A stretch of 32,000 nucleotides of DNA, taken from contig NC_016803.1 in the NCBI RefSeq assembly GCF_000189295.2, forward strand, positions 1,860,001-1,892,000. The letters are read 5' to 3'. Within the stretch, counting starts at the first letter, position 1. The number at the start of each line of letters is the position of its first letter. The notes beneath the pieces are model-generated. The model worked only from the letters and a program-made list of their open reading frames with translations. It did not search any database and was not told the DNA's origin. This stretch comes from Pseudodesulfovibrio mercurii (GTDB lineage Bacteria; Desulfobacterota; Desulfovibrionia; Desulfovibrionales; Desulfovibrionaceae). Positions 4,054 to 31,794 of the stretch are shown piece after piece. The position numbers and the translations under genes are program-made.

Positions 4054-5158
4054 CGAGGGCTTCATGGCCCGGGCCGTGGAACTGGCCGGACGCGGCCGGG
4101 GGGCCACGGCCCCGAACCCGTGCGTCGGGGCCGTGCTGGTCCGCGACGGCGTCATCGTGGCCGAGGGATGGCACACCCGATTCGGCAGGCTCCACGCCGA
4201 GCGCGAGTGCCTGGCCGACGCCCGGCGCAAGGGCGTGGACCCGCGCGGGGCGGCCATGTACGTCACGCTCGAACCGTGCAACCACCACGGCAAGACCCCG
4301 CCATGCACCGAGGCCCTCATCGAGGCGGGCGTGGCCGAGGTCTTCGTCGGCACCCGCGACCCCAACCCGGTGGCCGCGGGCGGCGTGGAGAAACTCCGCG
4401 CCCACGGCATCGAGGTCACCGTGGGCGTGCTCGAACAGCCCTGCCGGGACCTCATCGCCGACTTCCTGCTCTGGCAGAACACCCACTCCTGCTACAACAT
4501 CGTCAAGATGGCGGCCACCCTGGACGGCAAGATCGCGGCCGCCGCGCGCAGGCCCGAGCCGGTGTCCTGCCCCGAGTCCCTCGCCCGGGTCCACGACCTG
4601 CGCGCCCTGGCCGGAGCGGTCATCGTCGGCGGCAACACCTTCTACGCCGACAACCCGAGCCTGACCTGCCGGAAAAAGGACCTGCCCCCGGACTTCGTCC
4701 AGCCCTTCGGCGTGATCGTGACCTCGCGCCTGCCCGACGACCCGAGCCGCTTCACCCTGCTGCGCGAGCGGCCGGAGCGGGCCATCTTCATGACCTCCAA
4801 GACCGCGGCCCACAGCCCCCAGGCCGACGTCCTGCGACGGCGCGGCACCTCGGTCTGGCCCATGCCCGGCCGGGCCGGTTCCCTGGTCCTGGCCTGCGGC
4901 TTCGAGCGGCTGCGCTACGACTGCGGCTGCCACTACACCCTGTGCGAGGGCGGCGGCCGGTTCGCCCTGGCCCTCATCGAGCAGGGACTGGCCGACGAGC
5001 TCGTTCATTTCGTGGCCCCGCGCATCCTGGGCGACGATGCCGCCCCGTCGGCCTACTCCGGCCGGGACAACGTGCCCATGGCCGAGGCCCTGGACTTCCG
5101 CATCGCCGATTTCGAGCCCGTGGGCACGGATATCATGCTCACCCTGCGCCGCCGCTAG
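4025..5158 (+). CDS. ribD: Bifunctional riboflavin biosynthesis protein RibD (pyrimidine deaminase / uracil reductase)
   Basis: [34 protein letters not shown] and [12 protein letters not shown] deaminase motifs, plus a C-terminal reductase half. GGAG lies upstream of the ATG at 4025. The gene overlaps the deaminase gene by 29 nt. Confidence 0.93.
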
Positions 5159-5241
5159 CCCCCCCGCCGTCGGCGGTCACCCGCTGTCCCGAACGGGTTA
5201 ACCGATTTACAGCCACGGCTTCTCCTGCTACAGGTCGGATC

Positions 5242-6054
5242 ATGCCCGCCCGTCAACCTTTTTCCGCCCATCCCTCCGCCAACGCGCCCGGCGCATCGCG
5301 TCCCGGCCCCCTCGCGGCCCTGCTCCTCTGCGCCCTGCTCCTGCTCCCGGCAACGGGCCGGGCCGGTTCCCCGGCCGTGGCGCTGATGGGCTACACCTGG
5401 CTGACCGAGGAATACTACCCGTTCAACTACACCGAGAACGGCCGCATCAAGGGGGTCTCGGCGGACCTCCTGCGCATGGTCTGGGACGAGCTCGGCATTC
5501 CCCCGCAGACCATCGAGTCCATGCCCTGGGCCAGGGCCTTCGAGCGCATGGAGCATGAGCCCGGCATCGTGCTCTTCTGCATGGCCCGGACCCCGGAGCG
5601 CGAGCACGCCTTCCGCTGGGCCGGTCCCATCGCCCAGGTCCGCTTCGCGCTCATCGCCCGCAAGGACCGCCACGTCCGCATGGACAGCCTGGACGACATC
5701 AAGGGGCTTTCCGTGGGCACCCTGCGCGAGGACATCTCGGACACCCTGCTCGCCGACTACCGGGGGACGGCCAGCATCCAGCCCGTGGCCCACATGCACC
5801 AGAACATCAGCAAGCTGATGACCAACCGCCTGGACCTGGTGGCCTACGAGGAGACCTCCTGGCGCAAGATCGCCGCCCGCCACGATCTGGACCCCGATGC
5901 GTTCGAGACCGTCTACGTCCTGCGGGAGACGCCGGTCTACTACGCCTTCCGCGCGGACACGCCCGCCGAAGTGGTGGCCGCCTTCCAGGCCGCCCTGGAC
6001 CGGGTCAAGGCCCGGCCCGCCTACCAACGGCTGCTCGACGCCTACCTGCGCTAG
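5242..6054 (+). CDS. Periplasmic solute-binding protein (family 3 / PBPb-like), orphan
   Basis: In-frame ATG at 5242 within track ORF 4120..6054. Signal peptide ...LAALLLCALLLLPATGRAGS, then a typical SBP_bac_3 pattern (YPFNYTENGRIKGVSADLLRMVWDELG). No permease or ATPase gene lies nearby. Confidence 0.8.
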   Translation: MPARQPFSAHPSANAPGASRPGPLAALLLCALLLLPATGRAGSPAVALMGYTWLTEEYYPFNYTENGRIKGVSADLLRMVWDELGIPPQTIESMPWARAFERMEHEPGIVLFCMARTPEREHAFRWAGPIAQVRFALIARKDRHVRMDSLDDIKGLSVGTLREDISDTLLADYRGTASIQPVAHMHQNISKLMTNRLDLVAYEETSWRKIAARHDLDPDAFETVYVLRETPVYYAFRADTPAEVVAAFQAALDRVKARPAYQRLLDAYLR

Positions 6055-6855: not shown

Positions 6856-7819
6856 TTGGGGAAGAAAGAGGGCGGTTTTCGTGGAGACGTGGTCCTGACG
6901 GGAGAGGCTTCGAGAGCCTTTTGCCCTGCGAGGAGAGCCGCTGTGCTGGCTGCGCCCGCACGATGCTCCATGCCCTCCCGGCGGGGTCCATTTTTTTGCT
7001 GGCCCAAAAAAATAGACGAAAAAAAGGGCCTTGCGGGGTACGCGGCCGCCCGGGGAGGGGGCGCAAGAATCCGATCCGCTCGGGGCGGCTCCACCTGAGC
7101 AAAAGTATCGTGCGGCTCCCGGAGCCGGATGGCCCCATTTGAGGAAAACCGAGCTTCGGCAAGACAAGAGCCGCCACCCCTTCGCGGTCGGCTTCTACGC
7201 GCCCCCTCCAGGGCTGAGACGGTGCGGAGAAGAGGTGCTGCTGGACGCGAAGGAGCGGGCTGAAATGCGAGACAGAGAGCCGCTATCGGGTGCCTGAAGC
7301 ACCCTACTCGCACCAACAGCGCGATTTGCAGGCTCTCAATTGTGGATACGGGCCAAAGACGTAAATTCATATTGGAAGAGCCCCAAAAATGGGAGGGGAA
7401 TGCAGTCCCTTCTCCAGCCCATCATCTGGATTTCCTCCGCACATAGCCGCAGATGCGCGGCCCACCCCAACCGCGCTAGCCCCTCTTCGTACCCGGCAAT
7501 CCGCCCTGGCCCACCCCTCACACCCGGAGAGCGGTAGTCGGCGGCGGACCCTAGAGCCCGTGTTCGGCGGCGGGAGCGCAGGTTTGAGCGCGTCTGCGCA
7601 GCAGACATTCGCTCACAACCAGCGGGAGCCGCCTACGGGCTCTTGGGTCCGCCGGCGCGCGGCAGCACCGAAGCGCAGTTTTTGCTTCCTTTTTTCTGCG
7701 CCGGCAAGAAAGGAAGTCGCCGTAAAGGCGAAATACAATGTAAGGAGGACAACCCAAAGCCCGGTCGCGGATGCGCGGCCCGACCAACAAGCTACTCCCT
7801 CTTAAGCTCGCTGCCGGGC
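6856..7819. repeat. ~1 kb noncoding, repeat- and hairpin-rich gap (decayed copies of the composite repeat family plus internal repeats)
   Basis: No ORF here has an RBS or plausible composition. Two H2-like modules occur (GAGCCGCTGTGCTGGCTGCGCCC at 6935-6957 and GAGCCGCTATCGGGTGCCTGAAGCACCC at 7277-7304). A direct repeat GCRGATGCGCGGCCC...CCCTCTT occurs at 7449-7487 and 7767-7803. A 19-bp stem joins 7544-7562 with 7635-7653. Confidence 0.7.
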
Positions 7820-7884: not shown

Positions 7885-10386
7885 TTAGCCGACCACGATG
7901 TTGACCAGCTTGTTGGGGATGACGATGACCTTGCGGACCGTCTTGCCCTCCATGAACTTCTGGACGTTCTCCAGGTCCATGGCGAGCTTCTCCACCTCGG
8001 CCTGGGGGGCGTTGTTCGGGGCCTCGAATTTGCCGCGCACCTTGCCGTTGACCTGGACGACCAGGGTCACCTCGTCCAGGACCAGGGCCTTCTCGTCGAA
8101 GGTCGGCCAGGGCTGGGCGGTCAGGTGGACCGTGTGGCCGAGCGCGGCCCACAGCTCCTCGCAGATGTGCGGGGCCACCGGGGAGAGCAGGGTCACGGCC
8201 GTGGCGATGGCCGAGGACAGGGCCGCCGGGTCGGTCTCCTTGAGCTCGTCCTTGACCTGGTACAGCTCGTTGACCAGCTCCATGATGGCCGCGATGACCG
8301 TGTTGAACTGGAACTCGTTCTCGATGTCGCGGGTGGTCCTGCGGATGGTGTCGTGCTCCTTGAAGCGCAGCCCCTTGGCCGCGTCGTTCGCGGGCTTGTC
8401 GTGGGAGCCGGGCATCATGGGCGTGAGCACGTCCTCCAGCTCCTCCACCAGCCGCCACAGCCGGGACAGGAAGCGGTACGCGCCGTCGATGCCCTGGTCG
8501 GACCACTCCAGCTCCTTGACCGGCGGGGAGGCGAAGAGAATGAACAGCCTGGTGGCGTCCGCGCCGTACTGGTTGATCATGGCGTTGGGGTCGACCACGT
8601 TGCCCTTGGACTTGGACATCTTGCCGCCGTCCTTGAGGACCATGCCCTGGGTCAGCAGGTTGGCGAAGGGCTCGCTGTTGGTGACATAGCCGCAGTCGCG
8701 CAACGCCTTGGTGAAGAACCGGGAGTAGAGCAGGTGCAGGATGGCGTGCTCGATGCCGCCGATGTACTGGTCCACGTTCATCCAGTAGTTCAGGTGCTCG
8801 GCGCCCAGGGCTTCGGTCTCGTTGCGCGGGTCGCAGTAGCGCATGTAGTACCAGGAGGACTCGAAAAAGGTGTCGAAGGTGTCGGTCTCGCGCCGGGCGG
8901 GCTTGCCGCACTTGGGGCAGGTGCAGTTGACGAACTCCTCCATGGTCGGCAGGGGCGACTTGCCGTCCTTGCGCACCTGGGCGTTCTCGGGCAGCAGGAT
9001 CGGCAGGTCCTTCTCGGGCACCGGGACCACGCCGCAGTCGTCGCAATAGATGACCGGGATGGGCGCGCCCCAGAAGCGCTGGCGCGAGACGTTCCAGTCG
9101 CGCAGCCGGTAGTTGACGGCCATCTTGCCCTTGCCGGACTTGTCCAGGTGCTCGACGATGGCCTTCTTGGCGTCCTCGTTGGGCATGCCGTCGAACTCGC
9201 CCGAGTGGATCAGGAAGCCGGGCGCGGTGTACGCCTCGGTCAGGTTCGCGGCGTCGAGCTTTTCGCCCTTGGCCTGGAGTTCCGGCGGATTGATGACCGC
9301 CTGCATGGGCAGCTTGTACTTGGTGGCGAACTCGAAGTCGCGCTGGTCGTGGGCGGGCACGGCCATGACCGCGCCGGTGCCGTAGCCCATGAGCACGAAG
9401 TTGGCGACGTAGATGGGCAGGTCCCTGCCGGTCACCGGGTTGACGCAGTACTTGCCGGTGAAGACGCCCTCCTTCTCCAGGTCGTCGGCCCCGCGCTTAA
9501 TGCGGTCCATGTTCCGGATGTTGGTCACGAAGGCTTCGATCTCACCCTTGTTCGGGGCGTCGGCGATGAATTTCTCGACCATGGGATGCTCGGCGGCCAC
9601 GGACATGAAGGTCGCGCCGTACAGGGTGTCCGGCCGGGTGGTGAAGACGTCGATGGTCGCGTCCATGTCCTTGACCTGGAAGGTCAGCTCCGCGCCGTAG
9701 GACTTGCCGATCCAGTTGCGCTGCATGGTCAGCACGCGCTCGGGCCAGCCGCCCTCCAGGGAGTCGAGGTCGGCCAGCAGCTCGTCGGCGTAGTCGGTGA
9801 TGCGCAGGAACCACTGCTCCATGTCCTTCTGCTCCACCTCGGTGTCGCAGCGCCAGCACAGGCCGTCCTCGACCTGCTCGTTGGCCAGCACGGTGTTGCA
9901 GGTCGGGCACCAGTTCTGCGGGGAGTCCTTGCGGTAGGCCAGCCCCTTTTCCAGGAACCGGAGGAAAAACATCTGCTCCCACTTGTAGTACTCGGGGCGG
10001 CAGGTGGCGATCTCGCGCCGCCAGTCGTAGGAATAGCCCAGCCGCTTCAGCTGCGCACGCATCTCGGCGATGTTCTGGTAGGTCCAGGTGGCCGGATGGG
10101 TCTCGTGCTTGATGGCCGCGTTCTCGGCGGGCAGGCCGAAGGCGTCCCAGCCCATGGGGTGCAGAACGTTGAATCCCTGCATGGTCTTGAACCGCGCCAC
10201 CACGTCGCCGATGGAGTAGTTGCGCACGTGGCCCATGTGGATCTTGCCGGACGGATAGGGGAACATCTCCAGCACGTAGTACTTGGGTCTGGACGGGTCG
10301 GTCTCCACCTGGAAGCAGCCGGACTCCTTCCAGATGGCCTGCCATTTCTTCTCGATGTCCTCGGGAGAATATTTGCCTAATGCCAT
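7885..10386 (-). CDS. leuS: Leucine--tRNA ligase
   Basis: Start [19 protein letters not shown] at the ATG at 10386, with AGGAAAG upstream. HIGH-type motif HMGHVRNY and a KMSKS motif are present. 833 aa. The upstream part of track ORF 7885..11103 overlaps nusB and is not coding. Confidence 0.97.
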
Positions 10387-17371: not shown

Positions 17372-17827
17372 GGATGCCTCCGGCGGCCGGGGGAAGGGGA
17401 AGAGGGGACCCTTTGGAAAGGGTCCCCTCTTCCCCTTCCCCCGGACCCCCATCCCCTTCTCCCCCCTAAACTTTTTATCGCCGCTTCGCGGGGTCATAAC
17501 GCGGAAGCCCCCCTCCTCTCCCCACCGTCCCGACACGCCGCCCTGATGAATCTCCTTGTCCGCCATCCTCCCCGGCGGCGTAGGCAAACGTCCCGAAGGG
17601 TTCGCGCCGGGCGGCCCTCCGGGGCCCGTGGACGCCAGGCGCGAACCCTTCGGGACACCGCCTCCCCGCGCCCCGCCAATCCCCCCGCATAGCCCGCCCC
17701 CTCCCCGCGTCCAGCCCCGAACGTAGCGAGGCGACGGGATTCTCAAGGCCCTCGGCCTTGAGCGGGTGCAGGGCGGCGCCCTGCCCGCCGGAGGCGCCCG
17801 CCCGGCGAGGGCCCGCCGGAGGCATCC
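17372..17827 (+). mobile_element. MITE-like 456-bp noncoding element bounded by 15-bp perfect inverted repeats; carries an A-module hairpin
   Basis: GGATGCCTCCGGCGG (17372-17386) is the exact reverse complement of CCGCCGGAGGCATCC (17813-17827), and the match extends to about 22/24 nt. Inside are the A-module hairpin at 17387-17444, a 19-bp perfect stem joining 17590-17608 with 17638-17656, and a 9-bp hairpin at 17742-17762. No ORF is present. Confidence 0.45.
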
Positions 17828-20479: not shown

Positions 20480-20503
20480 CCCCCACCGCATCCCGATACC
20501 CCA

Positions 20504-20534
20504 ACGGGGCCGCCACCGGCGGCCCCGTTTTTTT
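20504..20534 (+). terminator. Rho-independent terminator of lon
   Basis: ACGGGGCCGCC-ACC-GGCGGCCCCGT followed by T7. Confidence 0.85.
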
Positions 20535-20536
20535 GG

Positions 20537-20891
20537 GCCTCCGGCGGCCGGGGGAAGGGGAGGAAAAACCCTTTGAAAAGGGTTCTTTCCTCCCCTTCCC
20601 CCGGACCCCCATCCCCTCCTTTTCCCAAACTTTTTGTCGCCGCTTCGCGGGGCGGGAACATATAAAAAGGTTCCTGACCAATGTGAGTCGGGAACCTTTC
20701 TTCTTCAATCTTTGGAGCGATTCGGGTGGCGCAGCCACCCGACAGCGGCTCCCCCCCCGCTCTCGGAATAGGCTTTCGAGAGTGGGTCAGCTGTGCATTT
20801 TCTTCCGGCCGGGCCAACCGCAGCGTAGCCGCCTACGTGAGGATTGGCCCGGCCGGAAAAAATGTGCAGATGGCCCGCTATCGAAAGCCGC
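20537..20891 (+). repeat. Composite structured repeat, full copy (modules A-H1-H2-B)
   Basis: A spans 20537-20652 with its hairpin at 20548-20604. H1 is AAAGGTTCC...GGAACCTTT at 20666-20699. H2 is GGGTGGC-GCA-GCCACCCGACAGCGGCTC at 20724-20751. B spans 20778-20891, with an imperfect hairpin of about 33 bp at 20784-20876 and apex CCGCAGCGTAGCCGCCTACGTGAGGA. Confidence 0.85.
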
Positions 20892-20902
20892 TAATCGTGC
20901 GA

Positions 20903-21892
20903 TCACATCCCCACCGCATCGCGGCCAGGAAGCCAGAGGCCCTTGTCGCGCCGCTCGTCGGCGGCGTGCTCCGCGCCCTCCACGTTCTTTTCCTCGGTCC
21001 GGAGGGTTTGGGTCCGGGCGCGGGCGTGGGCCTGCTCGTCGGCGTCGAAGAGGTTTTCGCACAGCACGGCGGCGCGCCGGGCCACGCCCTCGGGGATGGG
21101 GGGCTTGTTGTAGCGCAGGCGCAGGGCCGTGTTGCCGGCCAGGGCGTGGATGAGGATGACCAGGTCGCGGGCCACGGGCAGGTCCGGGTCGAGCCCGAAG
21201 CAGTGGGACAGCTCGTTCATGCAGTCCCACCACTGGCCCTGCTCGTAGTAGGCGCGGGCCAGGTTGTAGAACAGGTGGTCGTCGCGGTCCGTGTACTTGA
21301 GCGCCCGCCGGTAGCAGACCACCGCGCCCTCGAAGTGGCCTAGCTTGCGCAGGCTGATGCCGAACTCGTTGAACAGGAACTGGTCCTTGCCCGGAAACGG
21401 GGTCTTGACCCGCAGCAGCTCACCGAGCAGGGCGCGGCCCTTGGCCATGCGCCGCGCGATGATGTATTCCTGGCCCAGTTCGAACAGGCCGCGCACGTTG
21501 GCCTCGTCGATGGCCAGCAGGGAGCGACGATAGCCGTGGGCCCGGTCCGTGCCCACCAGCTGGTAGTTGTGGCGGCGGGCCGAGGGCAGCATGCGCTCCT
21601 CGAACACGGCCACCTCGGCCGTGTAGTGGTTGATGAGGTCGTCCGCGGAGATCAGGGATTCCTCGCCGAAGGGCAGGAAGTCGCCGTCCACGCCGCGCAC
21701 GGCGTAGCCGTCCTCGCCCACCTGGCGCACGAGCCAGTAGTGGACGCGGCCCTGGCCGCGCAGGGTGGTGCCCTTGCCGGGATTCCTGGATTTAGCGGTG
21801 GAGAAGATGCAGCAGACCGGGCCGACGCACCCCTTGGAGGTGCGGCCCGACCGATTCCTGCCGTCGAGGGAAACGTGCGTATCCTTGCTCAT
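20903..21892 (-). CDS. TPR-repeat protein with an uncharacterized N-terminal domain (paralog 1)
   Basis: 329 aa. The central and C-terminal part has TPR-like helices (AVVCYRRALKYTDRDDHLFYNLARAYYEQGQWWDC). It shares about 200 colinear residues with the ORF at 22235..23185. Confidence 0.8.
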   Translation of the reverse strand: MSKDTHVSLDGRNRSGRTSKGCVGPVCCIFSTAKSRNPGKGTTLRGQGRVHYWLVRQVGEDGYAVRGVDGDFLPFGEESLISADDLINHYTAEVAVFEERMLPSARRHNYQLVGTDRAHGYRRSLLAIDEANVRGLFELGQEYIIARRMAKGRALLGELLRVKTPFPGKDQFLFNEFGISLRKLGHFEGAVVCYRRALKYTDRDDHLFYNLARAYYEQGQWWDCMNELSHCFGLDPDLPVARDLVILIHALAGNTALRLRYNKPPIPEGVARRAAVLCENLFDADEQAHARARTQTLRTEEKNVEGAEHAADERRDKGLWLPGRDAVGM

Positions 21893-22234: not shown

Positions 22235-23185
22235 CTATTCGTCGCTACCGTGGCGCTTGAACTCCACGAGCCCCACGCCGCCGGAGCGGGCGCGGCCCGG
22301 CTCCACGGCCCGGCCCACCAGGGTGTCGTCGAGCTTGAGCCGACCGGACCCGGCGGCCAGGAGCTGGCGGGCGCGGGCGGCCACGGCGGGCGGCACGGGG
22401 GGTTTGTGGTAGCGGGTCAGCCGCCGCTCGTCCCCTTCCAGGCCGACCATGAGCGCGAGCAGGTTCTTGGTCACGGGCAGTGACGGATTGAACTTGTGGG
22501 ACTGGATCAGGTAGTCCAGGGAACGCGTCCAGTCGTCGTTCTCGTAGTGAGCGCGGGCCAGGTTGTAGAAGAGATTCTCGTCATCCGAGACGAAGTCCAG
22601 GGCGCGCAGGAAAAAGGCGATGGCCTCGTCGTAGCGGCCGCACTTGCGCAGGATGATGCCGAAGTCGTTGAACAGGAACTGGTCGCGGCCCTCGAACCCG
22701 GCCCTGATCCGGGCCAGGTCCGTGAACAGGGCCGAGGCGCGGGCGGTCTCGTCGTGCTCCAGGTAGACCAGGCCCAGACCGAACAGGCCGTTGAAGGCGT
22801 GCGCGTCCACGGTCGCGGCCAGGACATCCTCCGGAGCGCCCCGGCCGAGCAGGGCCGGGACCACCTGCTCCTCGAAGTAGGCCAGTTCCGGCGTGTAGTC
22901 CTCGACGAGTTCGTCCAGGGTGATCAGTTCGGCCTCGCCTATGGGCAGGTGCCGGTCGCTGAGCAGACGGCTGGCGAAATCGTCCTCGCCGGTCTGCTCC
23001 ACGAAGCGGAAGGTCAGGCTCTCGTGGGTGCGGCTGCTCGCGCCCATGCCCATCTTCACCGGGGTCAGGGCCGAGAACACGCAGCGGACGCGGCCGTCCG
23101 CCATGAAGTCCCGGCCGAACGGACAGACCGAGGCGGCGTCACCGTCCCCGGCATCGAGATGGAGCGCGAAAAATTCGTCTTGCAT
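22235..23185 (-). CDS. TPR-repeat protein with an uncharacterized N-terminal domain (paralog 2)
   Basis: 316 aa. Blocks shared with paralog 1: C[IV]FS, GED-[YF]A, LP-GE--LI--D[DE]L[IV]--YT-E-A-FEE, G[KR]DQFLFN[ED]FGI-LRK-G, DD-[HN]LFYNLARA-YE, and Y-KPP[IV]P--VA. Confidence 0.8.
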   Translation of the reverse strand: MQDEFFALHLDAGDGDAASVCPFGRDFMADGRVRCVFSALTPVKMGMGASSRTHESLTFRFVEQTGEDDFASRLLSDRHLPIGEAELITLDELVEDYTPELAYFEEQVVPALLGRGAPEDVLAATVDAHAFNGLFGLGLVYLEHDETARASALFTDLARIRAGFEGRDQFLFNDFGIILRKCGRYDEAIAFFLRALDFVSDDENLFYNLARAHYENDDWTRSLDYLIQSHKFNPSLPVTKNLLALMVGLEGDERRLTRYHKPPVPPAVAARARQLLAAGSGRLKLDDTLVGRAVEPGRARSGGVGLVEFKRHGSDE

Positions 23186-25042: not shown

Positions 25043-25106
25043 CTCATCCGAAAAAGAGTAAGGGCCGATCAGAAGACTGATCGGCCCTTACTCTTTTTCG
25101 GATGAG
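25043..25106. terminator. Perfect 30-bp stem / 4-nt loop hairpin (bidirectional terminator)
   Basis: CTCATCCGAAAAAGAGTAAGGGCCGATCAG-AAGA-CTGATCGGCCCTTACTCTTTTTCGGATGAG. I checked the complementarity base by base. The GC-rich inner stem is followed by TCTTTTT on both strands. Confidence 0.85.
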
Positions 25107-25122
25107 CGGCGCGCAGTGGGGG

Positions 25123-25481
25123 GCGGCTTGCGATAGCGGGCCATCCGCACATTTTCCCTGGGGGGCTTTCATCCTCACGTAGACGGCTACGCTGCGGTGA
25201 AAGCCCCCCAGGAGAAAATGCACGGCTGACCCACTGTCACAAGCCTAGTGCCAGCGCGGTGAGCCGCTGTCGGGTGCGGCGCACCCGAATTGCTCCGGCT
25301 TTGAAAAATGTAAGGCCCTTGGTTTATACTGAGATCGAAGGTCTTGAAATGTGAAACGCCCCGCGAAGCGGCGCTAAGAAGTTTAGGAAGGGAGAGGGGA
25401 TGGGGGGTCCGGGGGAAGGGGAGAGGGAAACCCGTTTATTTCAAAGGGTTTCCCTCTCCCCTTCCCCCGGCCGCCGGAGGC
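25123..25481 (-). repeat. Composite structured repeat, full copy in inverted orientation (B-H2-H1-A on the + strand)
   Basis: B spans 25123-25238 with its hairpin at 25138-25232. H2 spans 25261-25287 (GAGCCGCTGTCGGGTGC-GGC-GCACCC). H1 lies at about 25312-25346. A spans 25359-25481 with its hairpin at 25409-25470. The A end lies 3 nt after the cobT stop codon. Confidence 0.85.
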
Positions 25482-29972: not shown

Positions 29973-30317
29973 ATGATCGAAGTCACCGAAGCTGCCCAGA
30001 AGCAGCTCGAAGGCTACTTCCAGGACAAGGAAGCGTCCCCGATCCGCGTGTATCTCGCGGCCGGCGGCTGAGCGGGCCCGCGCCTGACCCTGGCTCTGGA
30101 TGAGCCTAACGATATGGACGACGTGTCCGAGGCCGGTGGATTCACCTTCCTCGTGGAAAAGGACCTGCTGGCCCAGACCGGCGATATCAGAATCGACATG
30201 ACCTACTACGGATTCGTCGTGGAGTCCCAGAACCCGGTCAGCGGCGGCGGCGACAGCTGCTCCTGCTCCTCCTCGGGTTCCTGCTCCTCCGCAGGCTCCG
30301 GCGGCTGCGGCTGCTAG
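29973..30317 (+). CDS. HesB/IscA-like protein with in-frame UGA (putative selenocysteine, codon 33)
   Basis: The ATG at 29973 is 7 nt after AGGAGG (29960-29965). The frame runs MIEVTEAAQKQLEGYFQDKEASPIRVYLAAGG-TGA(30069-30071)-AGPRLTLALDEPNDMDD... to the TAG at 30315-30317. The track shows only the 3' part (30114..30317), which is in the same frame. It is colinear with the paralog at 30895..31215, where the same position is TGC (Cys). Confidence 0.75.
30092..30106 (+). promoter_or_regulatory. Candidate SECIS apical hairpin
   Basis: GGCUC-UGGAU-GAGCC begins 21 nt after the UGA and has G in the first two loop positions. The equivalent codons in the Cys paralog (GCC CUG GAC GAG GU) cannot form this hairpin. 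Confidence 0.4.
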
Positions 30318-30340: not shown

Positions 30341-30658
30341 ATCCGCTGCGTTGCTGCAAAAGGCCCGGACCCTCGCGTATGAAGATACGCTTCGGCCCCG
30401 GGCCTTTTTTGCGCCTTGCGGCTGACGCCGTCTCGACAGCTGGCTCTCGCACGTTGAGGCGGTAAGAAAAAATGCCCGGACTGTTGCGTATGTTTTGATA
30501 CGCTTCGGTCCCGGGCTTTTTTTGCGCCTTGCGGCTCACCACTTCTCGCCAGCTAGCCCATCTCCCGCCAAGGGAATTGGGCGGGACGCGCCCGGACCCT
30601 CGCATATGTTTTGGTATGCTTCGCCCCCGGGCCCTTTTGCGCCTTGCGGCTGACGCCG
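30341..30658 (+). repeat. Three tandem terminator-like units downstream of the Sec-type HesB gene
   Basis: Hairpins GCCCGG...CCGGGC, each followed by a T-run, lie at 30363-30410, 30474-30523 and 30590-30638. Each is followed by GCGCCTTGCGGCT(G/C)AC. Confidence 0.85.
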
Positions 30659-30894
30659 TCTCACGAGTTGGGCCATTTCCATTATATAAAATCGGGCGAG
30701 GCGGGGTGCGGGCGGTCGTTCGCCTGGTTGCGGCTTGGGGCGAGCGGATTTCCGGGGATGAAATTTCAGATTTTTTCAGTCGGGATTACGGCGGGTTGGG
30801 GCGGCCGGATCGGGTTGTGCATCGTTTTTCTCTTTACATCGGATAGATGATCCTTATTGTCTTGGGGAACGAACCCCATCCAGGAGAGAATCAT

Positions 30895-31215
30895 ATGATC
30901 ACAGTTTCCGAATCGGCCCAGAATGAACTGACCAAATATTTCGAGGACAAGGACGTGCAGCCCATCCGGGTGCACCTGGCCGACGGCGGTTGCGCCGGTC
31001 CGCGCCTGTCCCTGGCCCTGGACGAGGTGCGCGAAGGCGACAAGTCCGTGGAGCAGGGAGCCTTCACCTTCCTGATCAACGAGGAACTGGCCCAGGCCTC
31101 GGGCGCGGTCTCCATCGACATGACCCCCTACGGCTTCCAGGTCTCTTCCGAGAACCAGATCGGCGGCGGGGGTTGCGGATGCTCCTCCTGCGGCACCGGC
31201 TCCTGCGGCTGCTAG
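30895..31215 (+). CDS. HesB/IscA-like protein (Cys-containing paralog)
   Basis: The ATG at 30895 follows AGGAGA. MITVSESAQNELTKYFEDKDVQPIRVHLADGGCAGPRLSLALDE...IDMTPYGFQV...GGGGCGCSSCGTGSCGC. The internal Cys plus the C-terminal CGC is the A-type carrier ligand pattern. Confidence 0.88.
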   Translation: MITVSESAQNELTKYFEDKDVQPIRVHLADGGCAGPRLSLALDEVREGDKSVEQGAFTFLINEELAQASGAVSIDMTPYGFQVSSENQIGGGGCGCSSCGTGSCGC

Positions 31216-31231: not shown

Positions 31232-31362
31232 ATCCGCTGCGTTGCTTCAAAAAGCCCGGACCCTCGCGTATTAAGATACGCTTCGGTCCCGGGCTTTTTT
31301 TGCGCCTTGCGGCTGACGCCGTCTCGCCAGCCAGCCCATCTCCCGCCAAGGGGATTGGGCGG
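31232..31362 (+). repeat. Fourth copy of the terminator-like unit (3' flank duplicated together with the HesB gene)
   Basis: ATCCGCTGCGTTGCTTCAAAAAGCCCGGACCCTCGCGTATTAAGATACGCTTCGGTCCCGGGCTTTTTTTGCGCCTTGCGGCTGACGCCGTCTCG is nearly identical to 30341-30435. The tail CCAGCCAGCCCATCTCCCGCCAAGGGGATTGGGCGG matches 30549-30585. Confidence 0.85.
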
Positions 31363-31437
31363 ATCGCGTCGGGGACGCCCGCAGTCGCGGGCTGTCGACG
31401 TCATCGGATCGGGAAAGGCAAAAAGCCGCCAGGAATC

Positions 31438-31742
31438 TTTCCATATAAAAAGCGAAACACCATATCGCGTTTCGCTTTTCAAACGGAAAACCACACCCCA
31501 CCATCCCCCATGGAGCGCCTTCGGGTGCCCCCGGCACCCGAACAGCGGCTCTCGCGCCAGCACGCTGTTCCGCACAACGCACCCCGGCCACGGGGCCGCT
31601 CCCCCGCGCCCCTCGCCATCAGGCTTGGGAGAGTGGGTCAGCTGTGCATTTTCTTCCGGCCGCGACAACCGCAGCGTAGCCGTCTACGTGAGGATTGGCG
31701 CGGCCGGAAAAAATGTGCAGATGGCCCGCTCTCGCAAGCCGC
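31438..31742 (+). repeat. Composite structured repeat, copy lacking module A (H1-H2-B)
   Basis: H1 is AAAAAGCGAAAC...GTTTCGCTTTT at 31447-31480. H2 is GGGTGCC-CCC-GGCACCCGAACAGCGGCTC at 31523-31551. B spans 31629-31742 with its hairpin at 31635-31727. Confidence 0.85.
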
Positions 31743-31758: not shown

Positions 31759-31794
31759 CCAAAGAAAAAGGGCGGTGCTCGCTTGGCACCGCCC
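31759..31794 (-). terminator. Rho-independent terminator of the right-edge gene
   Basis: The minus strand reads GGGCGGTGC-CAAGCGA-GCACCGCCC followed by TTTTTCTTTGG. It lies 40 nt after the TAA at 31835-31837. Confidence 0.8.

Follow-up and report, generated by a model that had tools for sequence, protein, structure and literature searches.

A mosaic of hairpin units, including a mobile-element-like foldback with a widely shared apex, as the probable nature of a composite repeat in Pseudodesulfovibrio mercurii

The window analyzed here, a stretch of 32,000 nucleotides from Pseudodesulfovibrio mercurii ND132 (NC_016803.1, positions 1,860,001 to 1,892,000; window numbering is used throughout), contains three copies of a composite repeat, c1 (20537-20891, plus strand), c2 (25123-25481, minus strand) and c3 (31438-31742, plus strand), whose modules follow the colinear order A-H1-H2-B. 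An initial annotation took the block to be either a single structured RNA of ~350 nt or an unusual MITE (miniature inverted-repeat transposable element). Our analysis favors, in place of one RNA gene, four distinct hairpin units that have piled up where genes end and of which module B is a MITE-like foldback element, and we assign this explanation as a whole a probability of about 0.55. B-type elements are non-coding, fold, sit at gene 3' ends and form mosaics around spacer terminators, and in sister families that share the apex of the hairpin they are mobile. The copies and fragments listed by the annotation read as it had reported them and were recovered by independent repeat detection: B repeats at 20770-20891 and 31621-31742 (93%) with inverted matches to 25119-25259, A repeats at 17376-17493, 20537-20635 and 25390-25481, and H2-like fragments on the minus strand at ~6931-6975 and 7277-7313.

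Module B is 119-121 bp long, within the size range of a MITE (less than about 400 bp), has no conserved open reading frame (ORF), is present in three copies in the window and is bounded, as expected of a MITE, by terminal inverted repeats of 12 nt (GGCTTTCGAGAG / CTATCGRAAGCC). In c1 it occupies 20771..20889 (plus strand) as a 119-bp foldback with the terminal repeats GGCTTTCGAGAG / CTATCGAAAGCC, its apex at 20816-20845 and a predicted folding energy of -90.6 kcal/mol; in c2 it spans 121 bp (25125..25245, minus strand; apex 25172-25198), and in c3 119 bp (31622..31740, plus strand; apex about 31667-31696). An alignment of 38 B copies from four genomes and metagenomes bears out the annotation's statement that the helices always remain complementary. 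Here, 97.2% of the cells are paired and 21 of the 47 pairs change on both sides, a level reached by none of 500 shuffles, and slid controls are 34-45% paired. The strand-specific G-T pairs noted in the outer stem extend to further columns: U-G or G-U is conserved in columns 9, 16, 19/20, 27 and 28 of the alignment. The family of the window has 202 G-U versus 17 A-C cells, and its written strand is 97.2% paired versus 86.8% for the reverse complement. The same asymmetry is found in a family from Desulfocapsaceae described below (171 G-U versus 7 A-C cells; 98.9% paired versus 87.8%), and the RNA folding energies of the two strands differ by 17-21 kcal/mol. These data show selection on a folded single strand for B, and do not distinguish RNA from extruded or single-stranded DNA. 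The earlier argument that conserved single strands combined with compensatory helices denote a functional RNA stands as far as folding is concerned.

The apex of B is an invariant structure of 27-29 nt, A-CC-GCAG-[CGUA-N - 4-6-nt loop - N'-UACG]-UGA-GG-A, in which CC pairs with GG and the two A's lie opposite one another or the 3' one is bulged. A 23-nt pattern derived from it occurs three times in the window and not once in 100 shuffles. The pair N/N' closing the apical loop, counted in 115 non-identical contexts, is C-G in 50, U-A in 42, G-C in 19 and A-U in 1, and is unpaired in 3, and the loop of 4-6 nt has a free sequence. The apical mini-hairpin is real, and the invariance of four of its five pairs suggests sequence-specific reading of the folded strand. 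Lower in the stem, most families share a G-A mismatch or tandem G-A motif (5'-CAGAUG / 5'-CAGAUG; UCAGCUG / CAGAUGG in Pseudodesulfovibrio), and many also have AAGGCG..CAACGC and GAGCGC..GAGCAC blocks. The 3' half of the apex, UACGUGAGGA (for example 20833-20842), is one base off the universally conserved sarcin-ricin loop sequence UACGAGAGGA, and UGAGGAUU within the apex also matches the MS2 operator; both likenesses are probably coincidental, because the mini-stem covaries. A sarcin-ricin loop contains a bulged-G motif closed by a GNRA loop, and the position equivalent to the bulged G covaries here with its mini-stem partner. A kink-turn consists of a 3-nt bulge followed by tandem G-A/A-G pairs, which the loop strands GCAG/UGA do not fit by inspection. 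Readings of the apex as an MS2 operator, a Shine-Dalgarno sequence, a dif/lox-like site or an integron attC site were dropped as well, being either at odds with the covariation or without the boxes that define such sites.

The same apex was found well beyond Pseudodesulfovibrio. An exact-pattern scan that covered one genome per species gave 86 loci (L001-L086): about 20 in D. caledoniensis, where at least 22 B copies were counted, about 20 in P. karagichevae, 2 in a Desulfovibrionaceae metagenome-assembled genome (MAG), about 35 in Thermodesulfobacteriota MAG031, about 12 in four Desulfocapsa MAGs, and a few in others (Brevibacillus, Acidobacteriota). About 4 chance matches were expected in this first scan, and L055 looks like one; L054 and L005 still show the A..A flanks together with a stem that supports them, and are counted as probable members. 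A metagenome scan that left the closing pair and the loop free added at least 120 loci from soils, sludge, saline and marine sites and the human gut, and a scan of viral contigs gave one match, among phage structural genes; the total over all scans exceeds 200 loci. Clustering of the flanks separated the matches listed into 59 sequence-distinct families of 32-70% GC. The apex always tops long hairpins, and from one family to the next their stems share no sequence relationship; a long hairpin was predicted for each of 25 representatives picked by hand. Among the same listed matches, the plus strand folds better in 42 of the 59 families (mean G-U pairs 3.75 vs 3.22), and the wobble asymmetry is absent or reversed in 17.

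One of these families, from the AT-rich genomes of Desulfocapsaceae and MAG031, is a textbook MITE. It is 178 bp long, its arms are entirely different from those of the window B, and its terminal repeats are GGGTTCGGTAAAAAATAACTTGG..CCAAGTTATTTTTTACCGAGCCC (starting GGGTTCGG..). The triplets flanking it are identical in 27 of 30 copies (TTA in 16, TAA in 11), corresponding to 3-bp target duplications, and many copies are identical; many contigs break inside the palindrome or carry it at their ends. Two further AT-rich families in the same genomes have a slightly expanded apex, and one abundant metagenomic family is flanked by AT-rich target duplications of 5-6 bp. The annotation had stated that near-identical copies with target duplications and no stable transcript would indicate a plain MITE; identical copies and such duplications are found in sister families sharing the apex, and no duplication was found in the window's own family at the boundaries tried.

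Other members lie in distinct settings. One metagenomic contig bearing the motif carries an alphaproteobacterial tmRNA, and another has at least 17 tRNA genes on one strand (L144:7960-10067) with an apex hairpin at 9485-9511 between two of them, on the same strand. In the 808-bp contig of Brevibacillus sp. H7 (L005), whose 16S-5S-23S arrangement is unusual, the motif lies on the rRNA strand in both the 16S-5S and the 5S-23S spacer, with compensatory differences between its two stems. Tandem repeats of ~120 nt occur in the Acidobacteriota MAG (L054:~5090-5500), with an intact apex in the last unit only and shortened earlier units (CGGGCCGCAGCCGCTACGAAATCC). In MAG031, a c-di-GMP-I-GGC riboswitch (Rfam RF03167, 60.7 bits; L013:1423-1497) is located about 240 nt upstream of a MITE copy. 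The B group is large, previously unnamed and apparently undescribed, and it extends over many bacterial lineages and at least one phage contig. In agreement with the annotation, which recognized no named RNA family, Rfam 15, searched at gathering thresholds, had no family matching the element either in the window or in the further loci covered, 8 from genomes and 16 from metagenomes; matches in E-value mode were limited to generic models of miRNA-precursor hairpins, far below threshold. A full-text literature search for the apex sequence returned only primers and sarcin-ricin-loop papers, nothing on the B family was found in the literature on Desulfovibrio or Pseudodesulfovibrio repeats or MITEs, and blastn of B against a plasmid collection gave no match.

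The modules of the composite are separable. Among 37 B copies with enough upstream sequence, A is present in about 16 and H2 in 27, and A occurs without B in 7 of 17 cases. The window contains a solitary A downstream of the acylphosphatase gene (17376..17493, plus strand), without H1, H2 or B; an H2-like module without B (7277..7313, minus strand, reading GGGTGCTTCAGGCACCCGATAGCGGCTCTC on that strand); and a degenerate H2-like module with a short remnant resembling the right end of B (6900..6975, minus strand). Module A is absent from c3. Additional units have entered B itself, namely an insert of ~85 nt with three hairpins in the outer stem of five copies, a palindrome of ~52 nt (TGAATTGTAGGCGAGTCTTCGAGCCKTACAAGAT..) in the 5' arm in three genomes, which a fourth genome has at an unrelated position, and a 55-nt insert inside the apical mini-hairpin. 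The ~85-nt insert (GATTCGCCCCGTCCTGGGGC..GCGGATTTGTC) always lies at one position, between AGGCTTT and GAGAGTGGG of B (L019, L030, L044, L061, L065), and its five copies form a subfamily with an extra branch. The ~52-nt palindrome (L008:~1600-1660, L043:1-40, L053:220-275, and L089 upstream of a HesB-gene terminator) looks like a second small mobile repeat, and it contains GTAG.

The terminator-like character of H1 divides the block. In H1, a GC-rich hairpin whose sequence is free stands between an A-tract and a T-tract, and this shape splits the composite between A and H2-B. The features of a rho-independent terminator (GC-rich hairpin and T-run, with an A-run in front if bidirectional) are present in the H1 of all three copies: in c1 (20660..20708, plus strand) an A-tract, a GGTTCC..GGAACC hairpin and a T-rich tract, bidirectional in shape; in c2 (25301..25346, minus strand) a hairpin followed by ACATTTTTC, terminator-shaped in the direction of cobT; and in c3 (31442..31483, plus strand) AAAAAG-CGAAAC..GTTTCG-CTTTTC, again bidirectional. 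By eye, the architecture is seen in at least 15 of 25 composites; the strict automatic count, 8 of 25, is low because the runs were folded into the stem. The terminator shape accounts for the conservation of the H1 linkers while the stem differs from copy to copy. The H2-B parts of c2 and c3 lie between H1 and a second terminator-shaped hairpin of the convergent gene. For c3 this is a terminator at 31770-31794 on the minus strand, 3' of B. For c2 it is a perfect 30-bp inverted repeat with a 4-nt loop at 25043-25106, between B and a 111-aa gene; its GC-rich core is flanked by AAAAAGAGT / ACTCTTTTT, which gives an extended bidirectional terminator shape. No promoter facing B was found in the elements, the single sigma-70-like site being in the H1 of c2 and pointing away from B.

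We propose that independent palindromic units may have accumulated in short spacers at gene 3' ends of Pseudodesulfovibrio. Module A would be a GC-rich long hairpin resembling repetitive extragenic palindromic (REP) units, H1 a terminator-shaped unit of the spacer, often bidirectional, and H2 a short conserved hairpin. The A of c1, delimited by repeat detection (20537..20655, plus strand; a GC-rich long hairpin and a short CGCCGCTTCGCGGGG hairpin), starts 2 nt past the T-run of the lon terminator (20503-20529), and that of c2 (25357..25481, minus strand) starts 2 nt past the cobT stop codon. H2 has the form TGGAGCGATTCGGGTG-NNNN-CACCCGACAGCGGCTC in c1 (20713..20751, plus strand) and is also present in c2 (25261..25296, minus strand) and c3 (31511..31551, plus strand). 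The possibility advanced by the annotation, that A-H1-H2-B as a whole forms a single structured non-coding RNA of ~350 nt, is highly improbable. The colinear order does recur in D. caledoniensis and P. karagichevae, with 76-90% identity over about 350-370 nt, but a terminator-shaped unit lies within the block, modules occur apart or with extra modules inserted at several points, the orientation of the element relative to adjacent genes varies across 48 families, and neither a promoter facing B nor an Rfam match was found.

Comparison with relatives shows that the presence of B varies between orthologous sites, as is typical of MITEs. The synteny from radC to the HesB-like gene is kept in P. 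hydrargyri, Desulfovibrio sp. Huiquan2017 and an uncultured Pseudodesulfovibrio (L087-L089). The c1 element is absent from all three, where the spacer between lon and the CBAH family gene is 74-81 nt long and holds a plain terminator. At the c2 site of P. hydrargyri, A-H1-H2 is present without B (junction ..CGCTCGGAA / GCCGCC..), and its c3 site contains only AGGCTTGGGAGA / GCAAGCC, that is, the outermost 6 bp of the B stem. A full B with flanks of 85-100% identity is found at the c3 site of D. caledoniensis and the uncultured strain, with a variant mid-stem and apex (CCGCAG-U-CGUAC-loop-GUACG-G-CGAGGA), and L089 holds an extra copy. Beside c1, the product of the gene convergent with lon (20903-21892, minus strand) is 329 aa long in P. 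mercurii, compared with 358 aa (CBAH family) for its counterpart in the three relatives (L087:11231-12307), and the C-terminal sequence differs; insertion of c1 may have replaced its 3' end.

Orthologous copies also differ internally. In five pairs of B copies from D. caledoniensis and P. karagichevae, with flanks 85-93% identical, the mid-stem cassettes differ in four, and the cassettes come from a small shared set. Orthologous positions with different cassettes, in species about 90% identical, are L048/L033, L009/L045, L040/L038, L001/L030 and window c3/L058. This implies that the inner 60-70 nt of B are frequently replaced, through re-insertion or through conversion from one copy to another. 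What looks like covariation in the mid-stem of B is therefore largely exchange of whole paired cassettes and not stepwise compensatory mutation. Stepwise compensation is also present, as in a change from U-A to C-G at column 25/106 and a swap from GGGUC/GGCCC to GGUGC/GCGCC that keeps the wobble pair.

Co-orientation with the 5' gene, which the annotation had reported for every copy, holds for the three window copies and not in the wider Pseudodesulfovibrio sample (22 co-oriented versus 10). More regular is the arrangement downstream: the gene on the 3' side of B is convergent in 37 of 42 Pseudodesulfovibrio copies and so reads B antisense, with its stop codon mostly within about 20 nt. Such closeness in GC-rich genomes probably reflects short spacers; targeting of stop codons was rejected, as only 4 of 30 Desulfocapsaceae copies overlap one. 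For 48 families among the matches listed, gene ends adjoin the element 40 times and gene starts 15 times, and neighboring genes run sense in 15 cases and antisense in 25. In D. caledoniensis, B is mostly in the plus orientation in both replichores (right arm 5+/2-, left arm 10+/4-), and the window itself has both orientations within 11 kb. A model based on single-stranded DNA of the lagging strand was therefore discarded, since orientation follows neither GC skew nor replichore. All 22 B copies of D. caledoniensis (CP195092) fall in the part of the genome that runs from 2.70 Mb through the origin, placed by the sign of the GC skew, to 0.94 Mb, leaving a 'repeat desert' of 1.76 Mb (42%) around the presumed terminus; a similar 'repeat desert' has been reported for Pseudomonas fluorescens (PMC3184786).

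In the favored explanation, B-type elements would be copied around the genome by transposases supplied in trans, which the sister families show by their terminal inverted repeats and their target duplications of 3 bp or 5-6 bp. The window copies could have arisen as the elements of the sister families did, and they are presumably old; their identity to one another, and to copies from other species, is 76-90%, and no duplication was found for them. Their fixed left flank, exemplified in c1 by the linker CCCCCCCGCTCTCGGAATA (20752..20770, plus strand) and preceding most B copies, resembles the right end of B (CCGCTATCGAAAGCC) and the left terminus of the Desulfocapsaceae MITE. Folding as a single strand would require the arms of the element to remain complementary, and conversion from arm to arm and from copy to copy may contribute, given the swapped mid-stem cassettes. 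The apex would most likely be the docking site of a predicted protein that reads the folded strand, either a mobilizing enzyme or a conserved host factor. Since families with different ends and duplication lengths share it, a conserved host factor or a structure-specific mobilizing enzyme seems likelier than an end-binding transposase.

Several results weigh against this explanation. The annotation's alternative of an unusual MITE is supported for B by its terminal repeats, by the varying presence of copies and by the duplications in sister families; however, no target duplication was found for the Pseudodesulfovibrio B or for the whole composite at any of the boundary offsets tried. As the left flank is nearly always the same linker, mobility of the Pseudodesulfovibrio B alone can only be inferred. 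About 1.5 Mb of flanking DNA contained no transposase or autonomous element with matching ends, and genome loci L001-L086 had no solo terminal repeats of such an element. Clustering of ORFs around the 86 genome loci, and then around 120 metagenome loci, gave no recurrent neighbor and no transposase, and Pfam scans of ORFs bracketed by inverted copies identified ordinary genes only (transporters and similar). The linked transposase of the RAYT (REP-associated tyrosine transposase) or IS200/IS605 type that the annotation suggested looking for was not found near any copy. Duplication lengths that differ between families with a shared apex speak against a single transposase family having its binding site there, and ordinary MITEs conserve their ends and not their center. 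The B-less sites of P. hydrargyri can equally be explained as deletions; the two junctions differ from each other, which makes deletion at least as likely as non-insertion.

Part of the evidence can be read differently. It is tentatively suggested, with somewhat less confidence than the mosaic itself, that the apex and the lower-stem G-A motif form an undescribed functional nucleic-acid motif of many bacterial lineages, read by a conserved protein in a folded single-stranded form, as RNA or DNA, and defining a new superfamily of mobile foldback elements; the motif itself could then be the selected payload or the true determinant of mobility, with ends and duplication lengths that differ. A rather unlikely alternative is that B, possibly together with H2, is a functional structured RNA, acting in cis in 3'-untranslated regions or spacers or as a small RNA; in either case a conserved protein would bind its apical internal loop and mini-hairpin, with its spread being secondary. 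The strongly strand-biased G-U pairs of the Pseudodesulfovibrio and Desulfocapsaceae families, the better folding of the plus strand in most families, the invariance of the unpaired GCAG and UGA amid freely varying stems, and the sense motifs of the tRNA array and of the Brevibacillus rRNA operon (16S-motif-5S-motif-23S, with compensatory stems) agree with such a role. On the other hand, no promoter facing B was found, terminator-shaped hairpins bracket it in c2 and c3, the adjoining convergent gene reads it antisense, and no compensation is visible at the orthologous sites that have lost it. Target duplications, like the identical copies, reveal transposition, and the orientation counts together with the weaker wobble across families weaken a strictly RNA-level, orientation-dependent role.

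It is still less probable that B acts as a hairpin of single-stranded DNA, in the manner of REP/REPIN-RAYT systems, IS200/IS605 ends or attC sites, with its apex read by a strand-specific nuclease or recombinase. The strand-biased G-T mismatches, the invariance of the paired CGTA/TACG, which suggests sequence-specific reading of the hairpin, the variable length of the hairpin loop, the location directly past stop codons on the strand opposite the gene, as for attC sites, and an orientation independent of transcription would all be compatible with this mechanism. IS200/IS605 and RAYT systems produce no target duplication, unlike the sister families; no Y1 transposase or integrase gene was found nearby, the GTTRRRY/RYYYAAC boxes and cassette arrays are absent, and the independence of orientation from replichore in D. 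caledoniensis, with both orientations within 11 kb in the window itself, is not expected.

Some further features of the window lie near the copies. The region beside c3 holds a segment of ~100 nt in three to four copies (30384-30671, 31275-31373; also 30192-30284 / 31114-31206) that contains a terminator-like hairpin GGTCCCGGGC..TTTTTTTGCGCC, and duplicated C-terminal coding tails of small Cys/Gly-rich HesB-like genes, which looks like local tandem paralogy. A TPR protein gene at 22235-23185 (minus strand) is 100% identical to DND132_1693.

The pattern described here, an invariant center with free arms and ends across many lineages, is unusual, and no description of it was found in the literature searched. 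The same apex tops otherwise unrelated foldback repeats in Desulfobacterota, in the rRNA operon of a Firmicute, on one alphaproteobacterial and one phage contig, and in metagenomes of the human gut, and something in many different bacteria appears to read the apical hairpin. Even if the elements are only MITEs, they would account for the repeat- and hairpin-rich intergenic regions of P. mercurii ND132, and the apex offers annotators a simple signature. A study from 2012 attributed five of the six gaps in the assembly of P. mercurii ND132 to sequence that is GC-rich and self-complementary (PMC3409199). Identification of the predicted reader would explain how a large class of small repeats moves, or would define a new protein-binding nucleic-acid motif, and the apex is directly testable with a short synthetic hairpin.

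For comparison with known systems, the properties of MITEs and bacterial interspersed mosaic elements (BIMEs) were taken from a review (PMC3184786). The hairpin MITEs found at gene 3' ends, namely ERIC/IRU, Correia/NEMIS and the cyanobacterial Chunjie and Nezha, resemble the B group in their small size (119-180 bp), terminal inverted repeats, many copies, lack of coding capacity, preference for gene 3' ends and very stable predicted hairpins (here -80 to -104 kcal/mol), the target duplications being found here in the sister families. In contrast to them, the B group is most conserved at its center, the apex, and not at its ends, and a single apex occurs on families with unrelated stems, 32-70% GC and differing duplication lengths; sequence similarity to these elements was neither seen nor expected. 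The BIMEs of enterobacteria, built of REP units, are likewise mosaics of extragenic palindromes with a recurrent order and conserved linkers, are frequent between convergent genes and have units that also occur alone. They share no sequence relationship with the composite, whose units are much longer; no RAYT gene was seen here, and B-type units have target duplications whereas REPs do not.

REPINs, the REP doublets mobilized by RAYTs (PMC3116915), also form a long hairpin from two inverted halves and reach tens of copies per genome with within-genome evolution. GTAG, which along with CGTC tags REPs (PMC3733652), is present in B. The GTAG tag is, however, unpaired at the 5' end of a palindrome of 20-40 nt in REPs and paired inside the apical mini-stem in B; given also the target duplications of the sister families and the failure to find a flanked RAYT gene, membership in REP/REPIN-RAYT systems was rejected. 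Tn3-derived MITEs (TIMEs) have AT-rich target duplications of 5 bp (PMC4133298) and also build mosaic non-autonomous elements. One metagenomic apex family is similar in its AT-rich duplications of 5-6 bp and its long terminal repeats with a G-rich start, a likeness to Tn3 inverted repeats judged by eye only, but the window family, with no duplication, and the Desulfocapsaceae family, with its 3-bp TTA/TAA, do not fit.

Integron attC sites are comparable imperfect hairpins, with a conserved structure, free stem sequence and one strand that folds better, and they are placed directly past stop codons on the strand opposite the gene. The apex is variable in attC and invariant in the B group. Sites of this type are recognized by R''(RYYYAAC)/R'(GTTRRRY) boxes, a variable apex and cassette arrays next to intI; no such boxes were found at the hairpin base of B, nor cassette arrays or an integrase, and the copies are dispersed in both orientations. 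Elements derived from IS200/IS605 have subterminal hairpins, insert 3' of a tetra- or pentanucleotide without duplication and are biased toward the lagging-strand template. A palindrome-associated element of that origin does not agree with the duplications in sister families or with the lack of replichore bias. By functional analogy, the composite would thus behave like a BIME, and its module B like the ERIC- or Correia-type MITEs that form hairpins.

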